DNA of 30,272 bases from Escherichia phage S164. The notes beneath the pieces were generated by a model, which searched no databases, was not told where the DNA came from, and saw only the letters and a program-made list of their open reading frames with translations. Below are positions 25,492-30,272 of this stretch, one piece after another. Every line of letters starts with the position of its first letter. The first letter of the stretch is position 1. The stretch is from the sequence record ON239131. One strand, 5' to 3'. The position numbers were made by a program, and so were the translations under genes.

Positions 25492-27766
25492 AGCCTCCGG
25501 GCGTTTTGTCCCTCCGTCAGCATTTGCCGCAGGCACCGGTGAGACGTTTACCGGTGCTTATGCATGGAACGCGCCACGCGAGGCCGTCGGGCGCGAAAGA
25601 CCCCTTACACGTGACGAGATGCGTCAGGTGCAAGGTGTTTTATCCACGATTAATCGCCTGCCTTACTTTTTGCGCTCGCTGTTTACTTCACGCTATGACT
25701 ACATCCGGCGCAATAAAAGCCCGGTGCACGGGTTTTATTTCCTCACATCCACTTTTCAGCGCCGTTTATGGCCGCGTATTGAGCGCGTGAATCAGCGCCA
25801 TGAAATGAACACCGACGCGTCGTTGCTGTTTCTGGCAGAGCGTGACCATTATGCGCGTCTGCCGGGGATGAATGACAAGGAGCTGAAAAAGTTTGCCGCC
25901 CGTATCTCATCGCAGCTTTTCATGATGTATGAGGAACTCTGCGATGCATGGGTTGATGCACATGGCGAGAAAGAATCGCTGTTTACAGATGAGGCGCAGG
26001 CGCATCTGTATGGTCATGTTGCTGGCGCTGCACGTGCTTTCAATATTTCCCCTCTCTACTGGAAAAAATACCGTAAAGGACAGATGACCACGAGGCAGGC
26101 ATATTCTGCCATTGCCCGTCTGTTTAACGATGAGTGGTGGACTCATCAGCTTAAAGGCCAGCGTATGCGCTGGCATGAGGCGTTACTGATTGCTGTCGGG
26201 GAGGTCAATAAAGACCGTTCTCCTTATGCCAGTAAACATGCCATTCGTGATGTGCGTGCACGCCGCCAGGCAAATCTGGAATTTCTTAAATCGTGTGACC
26301 TCGAAAACAGGGAAACCGGCGAGCGCATCGATCTTATCAGTAAGGTGATGGGCAGTATTTCTAATCCTGAAATTCGCCGGATGGAGCTGATGAACACCAT
26401 CGCCGGTATTGAGCGTTACGCCGCCGCAGAGGGTGATGTGGGGATGTTTATCACTCTGACCGCGCCGTCAAAGTATCACCCGACACGTCAGGTCGGAAAA
26501 GGCGAAAGTAAAACCGTCCAGCTAAATCACGGCTGGAATGATGAGGCATTTAATCCAAAGGATGCGCAGCGTTATCTCTGCCGCATCTGGAGCCTGATGC
26601 GCACGGCATTCAAGGATAATGATTTACAGGTCTACGGTTTGCGAGTCGTCGAGCCACACCACGACGGAACGCCGCACTGGCATATGATGCTTTTTTGTAA
26701 TCCACGCCAGCGTAACCAGATTATCGAAATCATGCGTCGCTATGCGCTCAAAGAGGATGGTGACGAAAGAGGAGCCGCGCGAAACCGTTTTCAGGCAAAA
26801 CACCTTAACCGGGGCGGTGCTGCGGGATATATCGCGAAATACATCTCAAAAAACATCGATGGCTATGCACTGGATGGTCAGCTCGATAACGATACCGGCA
26901 GGCCGCTGAAAGACACTGCCGCGGCTGTTACCGCATGGGCGTCAACGTGGCGCATTCCGCAATTTAAAACGGTTGGCCTGCCGACAATGGGGGCTTACCG
27001 TGAACTACGCAAATTGCCTCGCGGCGTCAGCATTGCTGATGAGTTTGACGAACGCGTCGAGGCTGCACGCGCTGCCGCAGACAGTGGTGATTTTGCGTTG
27101 TATATCAGCGCGCAGGGTGGGGCAAATGTTCCGCGCGATTGTCAGACTGTCAGGGTTGCCCGTAGTCCGTCGGATGAAGTTAACGAGTACGAGGAAGAAG
27201 TCGAGAGAGTGGTCGGCATTTACGCGCCGCATCTCGGCGCGCGTCATATTCATATCACCAGAACGACGGACTGGCGCATTGTTCCGAAAGTGCCGGTCGT
27301 TGAGCCTTTGACTTTAAAAAGCGGCATCGCCGCGCCTCGGAGTCCTGTCAATAACTGTGGAAAGCTCACCGGTGGTGATACTTCGTTACCGGCTCCCACA
27401 CCTTCTGAGCACGCCGCAGCAGTGCTAAATCTGGTTGATGACGGTGTTATCGAATGGAATGACCCGGAGGTTGTGAGGACGCTCAGGGGTGCATTAAAAC
27501 ACGGCCTGAAAACACCAAATCGTCAGCAAAGAAACGGAAGCCCGTTAAAACCACATGAAATAGCACCGTCGGCCAGACTGACCCGGTCGGAACGATTGCA
27601 AATTACCCGTATCCGCGTTGACCTCGCTCAGAACGGTATCAGGCCGCAACGATGGGAGCTTGAGGCGCTGGCGCGTGGCGCGACAGTAAATTATGACGGG
27701 AAAAAATTCACGTATCCGGTCGCTGATGAGTGGTCGGGATTCTCAACAGTAATGGAGTGGACATGA
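25481..27766 (+). CDS. A: Rolling-circle replication initiation protein
   Basis: ORF 25439-27766; start at MAVKASGRF gives 761 aa, the length of P2 gpA; translationally coupled to orf83. Confidence 0.85.
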   Translation: MAVKASGRFVPPSAFAAGTGETFTGAYAWNAPREAVGRERPLTRDEMRQVQGVLSTINRLPYFLRSLFTSRYDYIRRNKSPVHGFYFLTSTFQRRLWPRIERVNQRHEMNTDASLLFLAERDHYARLPGMNDKELKKFAARISSQLFMMYEELCDAWVDAHGEKESLFTDEAQAHLYGHVAGAARAFNISPLYWKKYRKGQMTTRQAYSAIARLFNDEWWTHQLKGQRMRWHEALLIAVGEVNKDRSPYASKHAIRDVRARRQANLEFLKSCDLENRETGERIDLISKVMGSISNPEIRRMELMNTIAGIERYAAAEGDVGMFITLTAPSKYHPTRQVGKGESKTVQLNHGWNDEAFNPKDAQRYLCRIWSLMRTAFKDNDLQVYGLRVVEPHHDGTPHWHMMLFCNPRQRNQIIEIMRRYALKEDGDERGAARNRFQAKHLNRGGAAGYIAKYISKNIDGYALDGQLDNDTGRPLKDTAAAVTAWASTWRIPQFKTVGLPTMGAYRELRKLPRGVSIADEFDERVEAARAAADSGDFALYISAQGGANVPRDCQTVRVARSPSDEVNEYEEEVERVVGIYAPHLGARHIHITRTTDWRIVPKVPVVEPLTLKSGIAAPRSPVNNCGKLTGGDTSLPAPTPSEHAAAVLNLVDDGVIEWNDPEVVRTLRGALKHGLKTPNRQQRNGSPLKPHEIAPSARLTRSERLQITRIRVDLAQNGIRPQRWELEALARGATVNYDGKKFTYPVADEWSGFSTVMEWT

Positions 27767-28218
27767 TGGCAAAAATTCACGAGGTAAAGCTGCACGCAAA
27801 ATATTTCGACCTTGTGCTGGAAGGAAAGAAACGCGCAGAGTTTCGGAAAAATGACCGTAATTATGAGCGCGGGGACACGTTGATTTTGCATGAATGGGGG
27901 CAGGGTGTGTATACGGGGCGAAAGGTTGAAGCCCGGATAACAGATGTTACTGACCTGTCAGACTGGCTGGAAGATTATGTCTTGCTAAGTATTGAGCTGC
28001 TTAATACAGGCGCATATGAGATTGTGAACAGGAAAGAACTTAGTGAGCGTGGTCTGTTATTCAGAATTAATCATGAAATTATGCATAAGCTCGGCCTTGC
28101 TGTTATGTATGAACCAGAGACGGGAATGTCTGGCGGGGCAATGGTTGCCACGGATGGAGCATGGAACTATTCAGATGAACAGATGGAGCGTGCACAGCAA
28201 AACGGGTGGCTTGGATAA
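27763..28218 (+). CDS. orf91-position protein with a possible ASCH/PUA-like (DUF3850-type) N-terminal domain
   Basis: ATGA overlap with the A stop; N-terminus MMAKIHEVKLHAKYFDLVLEGKKRAEFRKNDRNYERGDTLILHEW resembles DUF3850/ASCH-like domains from memory; C-terminal half unrecognised. Confidence 0.55.
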   Translation: MMAKIHEVKLHAKYFDLVLEGKKRAEFRKNDRNYERGDTLILHEWGQGVYTGRKVEARITDVTDLSDWLEDYVLLSIELLNTGAYEIVNRKELSERGLLFRINHEIMHKLGLAVMYEPETGMSGGAMVATDGAWNYSDEQMERAQQNGWLG

Positions 28219-28424
28219 TGCACAGAATACCAGGCGAGATACCGCACCATAAAACTAAAAATATCAAGCTGATGGCTATTGTTCAGCGTTTACAGCGGAT
28301 TATGGTCAACGAAAATCTGACGCCCGATGAGCTAGTCGGGTGTGCCGAAATAGTCCGGGATAATTACGGGCGGTTTAACTATATCGGTCAGTCCAGAGTT
28401 GCGCCACCACCACGCAGACGATAG
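28218..28424 (+). CDS. Small hypothetical protein
   Basis: 68 aa from the internal Met of ORF 28206-28424; TAATG overlap with the preceding gene; GC content like the core genome; no motif recognised. Confidence 0.4.
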   Translation: MHRIPGEIPHHKTKNIKLMAIVQRLQRIMVNENLTPDELVGCAEIVRDNYGRFNYIGQSRVAPPPRRR

Positions 28425-28427
28425 ATA

Positions 28428-28468
28428 ACGCCGCCAGTCGTGAAACTTGTTTTCAGGGCTGGCGGCGT
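28428..28468 (+). other. Stem-loop (10-bp perfect stem ACGCCGCCAG / CTGGCGGCGT, 21-nt loop) overlapping the start of repeat copy A
   Basis: Perfect inverted repeat just downstream of the stop at 28424; no T-run follows, so a classical terminator is unlikely. Confidence 0.45.
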
Positions 28469-28495
28469 TGAACAACGAGTGAAGCGAGGCGTTAG
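28441..28495 (+). repeat. Copy A of a ~55-bp direct repeat preceding moron gene 1
   Basis: Ungapped 42/55 identity by hand alignment with 29413-29467 (TGAAACTTG...GGCGG.GTTGA.CAA.GAGT...GTTAG). Confidence 0.75.
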
Positions 28496-28653
28496 TTGAC
28501 ATTCATATTTTTACTGCGTTGGTGCTGTTTTTTGACGGTTGAAAGGAGTTATCTCGGAGAGCTAAAGCTAACAACTTACAAATATTCAAAAGTAAGCTTC
28601 CTGTTGCTAACATAAGGTCGATTTTTTATGTGGATGATGCAAAAAGGATAGCT

Positions 28654-29385
28654 ATGGATACTATAATCGCTTTTCTATCACTCGCTTTTTTTGTTGCTTT
28701 TTTCATCGGGTTAATCAAGCCATCACTGGTGCGAATGCCAAGCCGCAAACGTGCAAGTGCGGTTTATCTCGGAGGAGGTTTTGTATTGAGCATAATTGGT
28801 TCAATACTCTATCCAACAGAAAAAAGCCAGCCAGTTGCTAAAACTGAAACATCAACCGTTGTAGAACACCAAGTCCAAAAAACATTCGAATATGGTGAAA
28901 AAACACTCAAGGAATATCGGAGCGAGCCAAAGAAAACTCGACACGATATTGTGAATAGTTACATTGACTTTAAGAAAGTTCCAGTCACCGCATCAGATGC
29001 ATTTTATGCCTGCATGAGTGAGTATACATTTACCAAAGATGATGAGTTGAAACTCGGTGATGTTCTTGGGTGGTGCTTTAATGATTATGAAAATGACCCG
29101 AGTTCACTAAATAATAAAATCAATCTTGATACATTTCAGAGTAATTTTAGTGGTTGGGATGGTTCTTATCGTCCATTGGAAAAACTAATTAAAGATAATA
29201 TGAACGATGATTCATCTTATAAACATGTATCAACGGTATATCATTTAGTTTTGAATAAAGACCCGCACGCCATTGTGAAAACGACGTTTCGCGGCACTAA
29301 TGCTTATGGTGGCATGGTCAAACAGACTGTAGCAGCGCGAGTTGACGTGCGAACGGGTGAGATCGATTCAATACTCGACAATTAA
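28654..29385 (+). CDS. Moron gene 1: predicted membrane protein (two N-terminal transmembrane helices plus a ~180-aa C-terminal domain), unknown function
   Basis: ORF 28630-29385 opens on GTG; the ATG at 28654 has RBS AAAAAGGA. Hydrophobic helices IIAFLSLAFFVAFFIGLI and LGGGFVLSIIGSILY. AT-rich relative to the core genome. Occupies the P2 tin/old position. Confidence 0.7.
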   Translation: MDTIIAFLSLAFFVAFFIGLIKPSLVRMPSRKRASAVYLGGGFVLSIIGSILYPTEKSQPVAKTETSTVVEHQVQKTFEYGEKTLKEYRSEPKKTRHDIVNSYIDFKKVPVTASDAFYACMSEYTFTKDDELKLGDVLGWCFNDYENDPSSLNNKINLDTFQSNFSGWDGSYRPLEKLIKDNMNDDSSYKHVSTVYHLVLNKDPHAIVKTTFRGTNAYGGMVKQTVAARVDVRTGEIDSILDN

Positions 29386-29412
29386 ATAATATAGTGACAG
29401 CTCCGTCAGTGA

Positions 29413-29467
29413 TGAAACTTGCTTTTAGTCTTGGCGGGGTTGAGCAATGAGTCTTGCAAGGTGTTAG
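29413..29467 (+). repeat. Copy B of the ~55-bp direct repeat preceding moron gene 2
   Basis: See copy A; lies 28 bp after the stop of moron gene 1. Confidence 0.75.
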
Positions 29468-29507
29468 CATGCGTAGAATGGAAGCTGCTTGGACGTGGGG
29501 TATTCAT

Positions 29508-30125
29508 ATGAATTTAAAAATTTTCGGCATAATTGTCCTTTCTGCTTTGATGTTCGTTTTAGGTTTTTTTCTCGGTGGTTTTAATTGGGAATGGGCTGAT
29601 AAGAATTATGCAGGTGAGGTGGCGTTGTGGAGTATGTTAGGAGGGTGGTTATCCGCAATTGCAACTCTGTTTGCCGTGTTGGTTTCATTATATATGGCGT
29701 ATCAAGCTACTCAGAATGAGATTGAAAAAATCAGGGTTACTCATGGAGTAAGTATGAGTGTCACTCATGACAATGAGTTAAGTTGTAATCTCATTATTCA
29801 GAACTTGAGAAATATGAAAGTGAATATTACTGGTGTTTTTTTGTCTCTAGGTAAATCATCAGGTAAGTACTCTTTGGATAAAGTAATTGACAATTGTAAT
29901 ATAACGCTTTCATATAAAGGTGAAACAGAAAAGGTACAATTTGTAATCCATTCTGGGTATATTTGGTGGTCAATGTATAAATTATTCGATATGGATAAGA
30001 ACATAGGTTTTGAAAAGGGTAAGATCTTTATAACAACCAACCTCAATACATATGAATTTGATTTGCCAAAAGAATATTTAAGAGCTTTTGAGAAAGCTTA
30101 TTCGGAGTATCAGACAAAAAAATAA
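29508..30125 (+). CDS. Moron gene 2: predicted membrane protein (N-terminal transmembrane hairpin plus a ~140-aa C-terminal domain), unknown function
   Basis: ORF 29454-30125 opens on TTG; first ATG at 29469, but I prefer MNLKIFGIIV at 29508. Helices IFGIIVLSALMFVLGFFLGGF and LGGWLSAIATLFAVLVSLYMAY. Strongly AT-rich with A/T-rich codon usage; last gene before cos. Confidence 0.7.
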   Translation: MNLKIFGIIVLSALMFVLGFFLGGFNWEWADKNYAGEVALWSMLGGWLSAIATLFAVLVSLYMAYQATQNEIEKIRVTHGVSMSVTHDNELSCNLIIQNLRNMKVNITGVFLSLGKSSGKYSLDKVIDNCNITLSYKGETEKVQFVIHSGYIWWSMYKLFDMDKNIGFEKGKIFITTNLNTYEFDLPKEYLRAFEKAYSEYQTKK

Positions 30126-30254
30126 TGAGCTGCATGCAAAAGGTGCATGTTTTTGCATGTGCTAAGTTCACTGGTTTTGTGTATATCGCTTCAGATCTAG
30201 CGTGGTTCCGGGGAGGGCATGCAACTGCATTAAAACCGCTCCATGAAGCGGGCG

Positions 30255-30272
30255 GGCGAGGCGGGGAAAGCA
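30255..30272. other. cos: cos cohesive-end sequence (right copy, 18 of 19 nt)
   Basis: Exact repeat of window positions 1-18. Confidence 0.8.

Follow-up and report, generated by a model that had tools for sequence, protein, structure and literature searches.

Gene order and the repeat pair at the right-hand end of the window

The window analysed here is a stretch of 30,272 nucleotides from Escherichia phage S164 (record ON239131). Between the replication origin and the right cohesive end it contains the following features.

27336..27355, + strand: gpA origin motif CTCGGAGTCCTGTCAATAAC, within which the P2 nick site is annotated
28218..28424, + strand: small ORF (phrog_11386, orf92/gp37-like), whose stop adjoins copy A
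28422..28495, + strand: copy A of the repeated element E, near-consensus (nhmmer 79.0 bits, covariance model [CM] 89.0 bits; aligned with 91 unique family members)
28427..28469, + strand: copy A hairpin, arms 28427-28445 and 28451-28469 of 19 nt each, CTTGT loop
28470..28495, + strand: conserved 3' tail of copy A, GAACAACGAGTGAAGCGAGGCGTTAG, in near-invariant alignment columns
28654..29385, + strand: Orf97-like gene (phrog_3403), AT-rich, between copies A and B
29395..29467, + strand: copy B of E, degenerate (nhmmer 66.2 bits, CM 66.1 bits)
29398..29442, + strand: residual hairpin of copy B, with G.U/G.T pairs, on the + strand only
29508..30125, + strand: variable cos-proximal cassette gene (phrog_16957, unknown function), downstream of copy B
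30254..30272, + strand: right cohesive end (cosR, from the P2 cosR annotation), the right boundary of the exchangeable segment

Copy A and the origin motif share a strand, the motif being ca. 1.07 kb further upstream. As the first-pass annotation had noted, the genes downstream of the two repeats are AT-rich (GC of 0.29-0.40, versus 0.51-0.57 in gpA). The phage 186 homologue of the Orf97-like gene is annotated "expression from plasmid blocks 186 infection," and the place of the phrog_16957 gene is taken by other sequence in contig L046 and in phage 9W.

A hand count had given 42 matches over 55 positions between 28441-28495 and 29413-29467, and ungapped realignment returned exactly the same figure (42/55); the similarity is not lower than claimed. 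The repeat in fact extends further on its 5' side, with 53 of 72 nt (74%) identical between 28424-28495 and 29396-29467. When the mononucleotides of 27700-30272 were shuffled 100 times, no ungapped match exceeded 35/55 or 41/72, and by this control the similarity is far above chance. Both repeats are copies of one discrete element of ca. 72 nt, which we call E; neither nhmmer nor the covariance model found a third copy in the 30-kb window. Each repeat had been placed 17 to 28 bp after a stop codon. The repeats do follow stops, and that distance is an artefact of boundaries drawn too narrowly, since conservation across the family starts at the stop codon itself.

Copy A opens with TAG (28422-28424), which is the stop codon of the preceding small ORF, and closes at GTTAG; this 3' pentamer of the tail corresponds to a stop codon (TAA) on the opposite strand. 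The 10-bp perfect stem originally reported for copy A is indeed perfect and is longer; its 19-nt arms have a folding energy of -36 kcal/mol when treated as RNA and of -22.7 kcal/mol when treated as DNA, with z between about -5.5 and -5.9. The helix is perfect where most family members show a G.G mismatch, and pair 16/53 is G-C in only 5 of the 91 unique E copies. Copy B accompanies a 186-type orf97 module; it begins ca. 10 nt past the TAA at 29383-29385 and has an in-frame TGA at the family's stop position. The claim that it lacks the stem was essentially right, the stem being degraded rather than simply absent. Its + strand reaches -22 kcal/mol as RNA, no better than shuffles (z -0.5), and only -6 kcal/mol as DNA, again not better than shuffles, and the - strand centroid is unfolded. 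Copy B is a decaying copy of E with a degraded stem.

Folding, covariation and distribution of E

E opens with a stop codon, continues into a hairpin of 19 bp that has one conserved unpaired G and AAACUYGCUUU as its apex, and then reads GGGGUUGAACAACGAGC...GGCGUUAG. Apex and 3' tail are conserved in sequence, and the stems covary. Of the 19 hairpin pairs, 8 were changed on both sides among the 91 unique copies, and the covariation seen was reached in 0 of 500 shuffles; in the phage-plus-plasmid alignment, 10 of 15 pairs were compensatory. The copies from Buttiauxella, Histophilus and contigs L152 and L153 have stems that are wholly different in sequence and yet paired. These compensatory changes bear out the earlier suggestion of a shared structured element. 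A further helix in the tail was considered and set aside: 61-64/78-81 is paired, although invariant, and for a mini-hairpin of the form C(GA/UC)GC...GCGAG the support is suggestive only. Mean pairwise identity is 0.7-0.9 inside E and ca. 0.3 just outside it on both sides (116 distinct contexts), falling within E to 0.45-0.52 at the first five bases and at the variable loop of the tail. Rfam contains no entry for E; the window gave nothing at the gathering threshold, and region 28300-29600 gave only chance-level matches at an E value of <=10.

E folds on one strand only. The mean minimum free energy of phage copies is -27.4 for the + strand versus -17.5 for the - strand, with the + strand better in 90 of 91; these copies contain 221 G.U cells versus 23 A.C cells, and three G.U/G.T pairs of the phage consensus sit in one cluster. 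Plasmid copies behave alike, the + strand being better in 28 of 29 and G.U pairs numbering 39 versus 0.

E is widespread in the right ends of P2-like elements and marks cassette junctions there. It is present in 77 phage records, in >120 IMG/VR P2-like contigs and in 515 of 5426 E. coli genomes, each of which has E at one place (the median) or at most two; Microviridae gave no BLAST match. Phage loci plus the window yielded 154 copies. Upstream of phage E there is always one of three unrelated genes. In 95 copies the element starts right at a stop codon (offset 0), the genes so ended belonging to two unrelated families, and most remaining copies begin 5-22 nt past a stop, including those after Orf97. 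The phrog_11386 small ORF is the commonest upstream partner (75 copies, with its stop at offset 0 in 68). The 64-aa ORF that precedes the Histophilus E is not similar to the phage small ORF and has only a few relatives, in Pasteurellaceae. E is co-oriented with gpA in 116/116 cases, 0.2-2.1 kb downstream of it, and 119 copies have cos at 0.2-3.4 kb on their downstream side. The mapped p95 transcript of phage 186 includes E, with orf97 before it and terminator t95b 24 nt downstream of it. Because classic P2 lacks E, one copy is at least 8 bits weaker in 20 of 27 two-copy loci, and copy B is degraded, a single copy per replicon seems to be enough.

Homologues of E with covarying stems also occur in >5000 IncF plasmids, in the settings traT-E-traD and yihA-E-copB, adjoining the stop codons of traT, yihA, dsbA and finO. 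Loop and tail sequences are kept between phage and plasmid copies; for the F plasmid tail, a hand count on the alignment gave identity at 30 of 32 positions. Among 130 plasmid copies, E(+) was opposite to every scored marker, including TraI (56/56), TraD (44/44), RepA1 (52/52), CopB (72/72) and others, and a promoter scan found no promoter-like site upstream of E(+) in the IncF and F copies. The whole of F has one copy, in the tra region and far from oriT. This copy shares one strand with the TraI nick-site sequence, for which we used what we take to be the published F nic, and that strand is opposite to the tra genes; the folding strand of E in F is then the transferred strand. The leading-region genes are co-oriented with tra. 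Those analysed in PMC11541004 are encoded on the T-strand.

E as the border of the exchangeable cassettes

Homology between the window and other phages breaks at the 3' ends of both copies, which supports the recombination boundary that had been offered as one explanation of the repeat. With P2-SIAC/Wphi, homology goes no further than 28497, at the 3' end of copy A. That to phage 186, which spans 28604/28622-29468, and that to contig L046 end at 29467-29468, the 3' end of copy B. In the collected loci, conservation ceases 3' of GTTAG, where 28 unrelated sequences (clusters) begin. Most of these diverge at the first base past GTTAG and not at scattered distances; a few cassettes (clusters 5, 19 and 20) are inserted 9-20 nt further downstream. 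What follows E may be genes on either strand. Most commonly, as in phage 186, nothing lies there but a terminator and cos; this "empty-site" flank is the only one with a separate true terminator. The same downstream sequences recur behind different upstream gene families, and vice versa. The flanks therefore pass the four-gamete test, which makes E the crossover point for cassette swapping. Conserved sequence in the phages ends with E, the variable cos-proximal cassettes come next, and upstream and downstream modules reassort at this site. Arrays of the form gene-E-gene-E occur in 27 loci.

How such exchange might proceed follows from the layout. E is the sole homology between otherwise unrelated neighbours, and cos shuts the other side of the segment, so that, where two P2-like genomes are co-resident, one homologous crossover in E would exchange the whole cassette block. 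The window itself may have arisen when a 186-type "orf97 + E" was joined behind a P2/Wphi-type "small ORF + E"; the second copy is now in decay. Exchange by cos plus a homologous crossover has been raised as a speculation in the main texts of Rousset et al. 2022 (PMC9122126) and Moura de Sousa et al. 2026 (PMC13586616), and this route fits the E data. However, simple homologous exchange alone does not explain why many independent cassettes start exactly after GTTAG.

The locus is the same as the P2 "TO region" or defence hotspot between the replication gene and cos (PMC9122126, PMC13586616), of which E forms the left edge. In the main texts of these two papers, term searches found no mention of a border element, hairpin or repeat, and a text search for E sequence strings found none in the literature collection covered. 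According to the same papers, anti-phage systems have a major reservoir in P2-like prophages, where they turn over very fast between the replication gene and cos. The present analysis identifies a concrete 72-nt sequence as the left border and crossover point of this hotspot, which makes the exchange testable; in prophage annotation, it would also be of practical use for marking the limits of cassette hotspots.

Possible functions of E and comparison with known systems

Thousands of clinically important IncF plasmids carry E under a strict strand rule, and its presence in both phages and IncF plasmids points to a shared, undescribed single-strand function; the only obvious feature common to the two is nicking by HUH enzymes. 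Tentatively, we favour the view that E is a strand-specific single-stranded DNA (ssDNA) signal, akin to a complementary-strand initiation site, that doubles as a recombination anchor. A HUH nickase (gpA at ori, ca. 1.07 kb upstream of copy A, or TraI at oriT in the plasmids) would cut, the strand would be peeled off, and E would act as folded ssDNA. Its likeliest role would be that of a host-read signal that starts complementary (lagging) strand synthesis, in the manner of ssi or sso. In P2-like phages, the folding strand of E runs in the direction of gpA and its neighbouring genes, the ori motif is on the + strand, and GC skew at 4-fold sites is ca. +0.08 for genes of both orientations; judged by motif and skew, the strand that gpA nicks, and hence displaces, would be E(+). 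Strand-specific ssi and sso signals, with host enzymes as their readers, are established features of rolling-circle replicons (PMC5714925). If the proposal is true, E would close a gap in the picture of how P2 replicates by rolling circle and of how plasmids become established after conjugation.

Several points count against this ssDNA reading. The G.U/G.T asymmetry fits RNA at least as well, G.T being weak in DNA. There is no doubt that E is transcribed in phages, where it forms the upstream gene's 3' end, and it abuts the stop codon with striking precision. The lone E of F, far from oriT, is not obviously useful for priming. Moreover, classical electron microscopy of P2 and 186 reportedly described replication as right to left, and in that case E(+) would be on the leading-strand template. 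To our knowledge, no ssi or sso sequence resembles E; 11 ssi were reportedly described by Nomura in 1991.

A rival reading is an RNA element, in which E would be a 3'-UTR hairpin at the stop codon that stabilizes or processes the upstream mRNA (as an exonuclease block or an RNase III-type site) or that insulates cassettes from early/SOS-operon transcription. The juxtaposition with stops in unrelated gene families, the G.U pairs on the sense strand, a helix that is continuous only as RNA, and the position of the 186 copy inside the p95 transcript all argue for it, and we take the 20-bp helix with its internal irregularity to resemble RNase III substrates. Nevertheless, the folding strand in IncF is antisense to every marker scored among the 130 copies, which makes the RNA structure proposed by the first-pass annotation doubtful for the flanking genes. 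Plasmid E(+) has no promoter-like site upstream, loop and tail are conserved from phage to plasmid all the same, the + strand has no U-tract and no called terminator, and one of two copies usually decays, which is unexpected if each gene needs its own 3' element. On balance, we regard an RNA function as rather unlikely. Less probable still, in our estimation, is that E serves as an intrinsic terminator of opposite-strand transcription, or acts in both directions; it would then end genes like traT and yihA in plasmids and, in phages, keep leftward cassette transcription from the replication genes. The reverse complement does form a hairpin followed by tracts of the UUUG/UUUC/UUUAUUA type, plasmid copies lie directly past the stops of traT, yihA, dsbA and finO, and a terminator after traT was reportedly described in the 1980s. 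Against this, the scan calls no terminator on either strand. The - strand turns G.U pairs into A.C mismatches (its folds have 0 G.U pairs), is the weaker one in 28 of 29 plasmid and 90 of 91 phage copies, and would have a C.C mismatch near the stem base. A generic terminator would also leave the strong conservation of loop and tail unexplained.

The precision of the cassette starts raises another, equally improbable alternative: that E is a site-specific recombination or insertion site that acts as a folded single strand (attC-like or a HUH target), with cassettes placed precisely 3' of GTTAG. Divergence of most of the 28 clusters at the first base, the gene-E-gene-E arrays, a strand-specific fold with an extrahelical G, and the fact that both host replicon types encode HUH nickases are in keeping with it. 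However, there is no integrase or dedicated recombinase beside E; by inspection, the attC cores RYYYAAC and GTTRRRY are unmatched, and the primary sequence is highly conserved, unlike that of attC. Plasmid E lies between fixed conserved genes (traT-E-traD) rather than at a variable junction, E is unlike the gpA ori or the F nic site, and a few cassettes (clusters 5, 19 and 20) begin 9-20 nt further downstream. A narrower form, to which we assign a very small probability, would make E the recognition site of an undescribed ssDNA-specific recombination or insertion that joins cassettes 3' of GTTAG without an integron integrase, perhaps with a HUH nickase or a host enzyme as the actor; such a joining reaction would explain why most independent cassettes start at one phosphodiester bond. 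Finally, the first-pass annotation had considered a promoter-associated site or operator for the two AT-rich "moron" genes. Both window copies do lie upstream of such a gene, and a TTGACA hexamer (28496-28501) directly follows copy A. This idea now seems scarcely credible. No sigma-70-like site was found in or beside E, and none overlaps either copy; the downstream partner can be anything or nothing, most commonly a terminator and then cos; and the stems covary to unrelated sequences, which would be intolerable for a protein-binding site in duplex DNA.

Other identities were tried and rejected. E is not a dispersed repeat of the REP/BIME or MITE kind, given its one or at most two places per E. 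coli genome and its single occurrence in the whole of F, and no consistent duplication of the type that accompanies a MITE or terminal inverted repeat was seen. The absence of a -35/-10 at the copies and of any constant relation to a downstream gene counts against a sigma-70 promoter or operator. The Chi octamer GCTGGTGG differs from the consensus 3' arm GCTGGCGG by one mismatch, Tus/Ter sites gave only a near miss, and similarity to the gpA origin or a phiX-type nick site amounted to a weak AAYAAC resemblance. Nor does E appear to be coding: the + strand has stops in all three frames across the repeats, and on the minus strand the two ORFs with starts there differ in the frame they use over the shared bases (by inspection). 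When the tail complement was searched as an sRNA seed against the phage genome at <=3 mismatches, two of the three matches were the elements themselves and no convincing target emerged; a loop-tail pseudoknot was unsupported on inspection of the alignment.

Among known systems, intrinsic terminators and REP-type gene-end hairpins (e.g., t95b of 186) share with E a GC-rich hairpin directly past a stop. E differs from them in having no U-tract on the folding strand, in its conserved loop and tail, and in occurring once or twice per replicon; no intrinsic terminator was called on either strand at copies A and B or in F/IncF, and the + strand tail reads UUGAACAAC. The attC sites of integrons are likewise found at the 3' ends of cassette genes, often over the stop, fold on one strand with an extrahelical base, and form gene-site arrays. 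They are, however, conserved in structure and not in sequence, have RYYYAAC/GTTRRRY cores and require IntI, whereas E ends in ..CAAAC/GAGAAC and GTTAG[C/T]N, retains an identity of 0.7-0.9, and has no adjacent integrase in the phage or plasmid loci. Frpo resembles E as a folded structure in strict orientation on the transferred strand of conjugative plasmids, but it mimics a double-stranded promoter with -35 and -10 and lies in the leading region (PMC11541004), while E lies in the tra/rep region and has a 19-bp stem with no such hexamers and no promoter-like site.

The ssi (phiX174-type primosome assembly and G4-type primase sites) and rolling-circle sso are non-coding hairpins of 50-150 nt whose activity is confined to a single strand and orientation; they are exposed after a HUH nick, read by the host and individually dispensable (PMC5714925). 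Unlike these, the single E copy of F sits in the tra region and not near an origin. E is like them in its size, its strand and orientation rule, its position downstream of the nick in phages, and its dispensability. As in ssi and sso, the hairpin of E is selected on one strand only, as judged from the folds (90/91 phage and 28/29 plasmid copies) and the covariation. In plasmids E lies on the exposed strand, presuming the nic sequence we used, and in phages its orientation is fixed throughout (116/116).

The repeat and its family in P2-like phages

The window is a full genome of the P2-like type (Peduovirus), bounded by cosL and cosR. The first-pass annotation had reported a 55-bp repeat at 42/55 identity, a value we obtained again on recount, followed in both cases by AT-rich genes, as is so. 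The repeat is longer on its 5' side: 72 nt align without gaps (28424-28495 versus 29396-29467) with 53/72 identities, and the top scores among 100 shuffles of 27700-30272 were 35/55 and 41/72. We call this hairpin-forming element E; the hairpin of its first copy (A) is as follows.

28427-28469: copy A hairpin, 19-nt arms, -36 kcal/mol as RNA and -22.7 as DNA, z about -5.5

The second copy (B) had been said to lack this stem. It is indeed no more stable than shuffled sequence, but a weakened hairpin remains, on the + strand only, through G.U pairs. The copies score 89 bits (A) and 66 bits (B).

With copy A as query, BLAST found E in 77 phage records, including Wphi, 186, PSP3 and P2-like phages of Salmonella, Klebsiella, Erwinia and Yersinia, and E occupies one or two places in each of 515/5426 complete E. 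coli genomes; a degenerate-pattern search of IMG/VR had more than 120 contigs among the matches listed. From the BLAST and IMG/VR loci, nhmmer recovered 154 copies (97 distinct sequences), with the consensus: stop codon, 2 bases, AACGCCGCCRG UG CUGAAA CUYGY UUUCAG UG CUGGCGGGGUU, GAACAACGAGC, 3 variable bases, GCGAGGCGUUAG. Mean pairwise identity over 116 distinct contexts reaches 0.7-0.9 within E, with dips to 0.45-0.52 in the first five bases and the variable loop of the tail, and falls to about 0.3 a few bases beyond E on either side. Scored against the replication nickase gene gpA, 116 of 116 copies are co-oriented with it; E lies 0.2-2.1 kb past gpA and 0.2-3.4 kb ahead of cos. No Rfam family was matched by E. 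Its sequence strings were absent from the literature searched; older subscription literature lay outside that scope, and an earlier report of the copy between traT and traD of the F plasmid is possible.

In 91 unique phage copies the hairpin is 91.8% paired, with two-sided changes in 8 of 19 pairs, a covariation reached by none of 500 shuffles. At the fourth position of the stem, even highly divergent copies retain a bulged G or G.G mismatch. G.U cells outnumber A.C cells by 221 to 23, and in 90 of the 91 it is the + strand that gives the better fold.

Divergent copies in IncF plasmids and elsewhere

A pattern scan revealed divergent copies in Histophilus somni and in a Buttiauxella contig of IncF-like type. 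Their stems are wholly different in sequence with pairing intact, and they retain the unpaired G together with the apex AAACUYGCUUU and a tail of the form GGGUUGARCAAC...GGCGUYAG. The Buttiauxella copies matched at least 5000 PLSDB records by BLAST; those listed are mainly conjugative plasmids of Klebsiella, Escherichia, Salmonella and Shigella, with an IncF-type replicon on every match inspected. Phage and plasmid E are both detected by the phage HMM and by a joint covariance model, and 30/32 positions of the F tail agree with the commonest tail of P2/Wphi-type phages (hand count in the alignment). E(+), the strand that folds, again folds better in 28/29 unique plasmid hairpins (G.U pairs, 39 versus 0).

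In annotated plasmids and 130 metagenome copies, the arrangements are traT-E-traD, yihA-E-copB, dsbA-E and finO-E, and E is opposite to all marker hits scored (72/72, 59/59, 58/58, 56/56, 52/52, 52/52, 45/45, 44/44 and others). F itself has one copy.

89582-89668 of the F plasmid: E, single copy

In F, the TraI nick-site sequence is carried by the strand of E, with the tra genes on the other strand, and the leading-region genes share the tra orientation. The leading-region genes analysed in PMC11541004 are reported to be encoded by the T strand. Together, these points place E(+) on the transferred strand.

In F (locus L163, 1553-1585), the stretch from the traT stop codon to E holds a further GC-rich hairpin, GGAGGCTGGTCTGACCGGCCTCC, unrelated to that of E. 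The Histophilus somni chromosomal copy (locus L139, 4786-4880, minus strand) has fully covarying stems and follows a 64-aa ORF found only in a few Pasteurellaceae; the two form an antiparallel insertion flanked by a DASS transporter gene and an operon for an ABC transporter, and no obvious gene of phage or plasmid type occurs within some 2 kb.

Flanking genes and exchange of cassettes

Three main gene families precede E in phages: the phrog_11386 small ORF (n=75), a DinI/TumB-like family (n=32) and Orf97 (n=34). The first two are unrelated, yet their stop codons lie at an identical offset to E; the stop of Orf97 precedes that offset by 6 or 12 nt in 30/34 copies and by 11 nt in the remaining four, in frame (by inspection) with a TGA at the offset itself. 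On the 3' side are 28 unrelated sequence clusters, the majority diverging at the first base past GTTAG. Most often the downstream side is "empty": 20 nt separate E from a canonical terminator (t95b in 186), and cos comes next.

The terminal pentamer GTYAG is an opposite-strand stop, TAA for GTTAG in phages (28491-28495 and 29463-29467 in the window) and TGA for GTCAG in plasmids (locus L159, 6070-6075), and E thus bears a stop codon at both ends, one per strand; plasmid yihA and dsbA actually terminate there. The orf91 homologue of the window (27766-28215) fuses a DUF3850/ASCH domain to DUF7415 (PHROG "RNA-binding protein" relatives) and is 150 aa long, its classic P2 counterpart being truncated to 109 aa. 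Such a gene is an unlikely partner of E, since 186 carries E with no orf91-type gene annotated between gpA and cos. The small ORF (28206-28424, from GTG 28206 or ATG 28218) begins before the orf91 homologue (27730-28218) has ended, an overlap that suggests translational coupling. Wphi is annotated otherwise, its gp92 stopping 144 nt short of E, possibly through a frameshift or an annotation difference. Terminator-like hairpins bracket the last 140 nt ahead of cosR (30132-30160, +; 30251-30236, -); one closes the final cassette gene, and the minus-strand hairpin would halt P-Q late transcription across joined cos.

Homology to P2-SIAC and Wphi extends as far as 28497, where copy A ends; that to the orf97 block of 186 begins at about 28604/28622 and stops with copy B, at 29468. 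Contig L046 shares 94% identity as far as 29467 and is unrelated beyond until cos, and in phage 9W, from which copy B is missing, identity is 95.5% as far as 29372. These limits resolve the region into "small ORF + E", a 186-type "orf97 + E" and a further cassette. In 27 two-copy loci the spacing is about 405 or 972 nt; one copy is weaker by at least 8 bits in 20, and the copy behind the small ORF scores higher or equal in 25.

Upstream families and downstream clusters reassort: for example, up0/up2 occur with dn0/dn3/dn4/dn5, and up0/up1 with dn0/dn14. Because the flanks are mutually non-homologous, E is the sole shared sequence, and this four-gamete pattern therefore locates the exchanges in or at E, bearing out the earlier suggestion of a recombination boundary. 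One crossover suffices, since cos closes the segment. The exchange route speculated upon in PMC9122126 agrees with a crossover at E plus cos; term searches in the main texts of that paper and PMC13586616 turned up nothing on an element of this kind. Classic P2 is without E. In it (NC_001895, 30645-30684) the small ORF is likewise missing, and the leftward tin-old cassette begins 38 nt beyond the shortened orf91; cassette replacement thus removed E from the type phage.

The 3' arm of copy A at 28457-28464 (consensus columns 45-52 of the phage alignment) reads GCTGGCGG, one mismatch from Chi, GCTGGTGG; copy B has TCTTGGCGG. RecBCD loading at the right cos end would reach its 3' side first. Chi-like activity would suit cassette swapping, but a chance near-match in 72 nt is only mildly improbable. 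A perfect -35 hexamer, TTGACA (28496-28501), starts at the first base past copy A and is kept in 19 copies having the same downstream cluster; no acceptable -10 was found 16-18 nt past it, and a promoter scan calls nothing there.

A proposed strand-specific signal

Between phages and plasmids the orientation of E to its neighbour genes is opposite, whereas loop, tail and folding strand are conserved, which argues against a role in neighbouring mRNAs and for a function tied to replicon polarity. A sense-strand RNA hairpin in 3' untranslated regions agrees with the phage data and with the adjacent stop codons; being at odds with the plasmid orientation, it seems to us a rather improbable account. 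We think it unlikely that E is an opposite-strand terminator: the U-rich tract and the location after plasmid genes agree, but the strand bias contradicts it and a terminator scan makes no call. A site-specific insertion site acting as a folded strand would account for the recurrent GTTAG junction; it is equally doubtful, as no recombinase accompanies it and plasmid E sits between fixed genes. The promoter or operator proposed at first found no support, and we consider it very improbable indeed.

Both kinds of replicon expose one strand following an HUH nick, and in the window the relevant origin motif lies about 1.07 kb 5' of copy A.

27336-27355, + strand: gpA origin motif

At 4-fold sites the + strand has a GC skew of about +0.08, whichever way the genes are oriented, modest evidence that the + strand is the one exposed. 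The displaced phage strand would then carry E(+), and the active form would presumably be single-stranded DNA rather than RNA. Our leading candidate, put forward tentatively, is that E is a strand-specific single-stranded-DNA signal, most likely for complementary-strand initiation. A signal that is dispensable and required just once per replicon would be consistent with the absence of E from classic P2 and with the decay of spare copies; in this E would resemble the ssi and sso signals for complementary-strand initiation.
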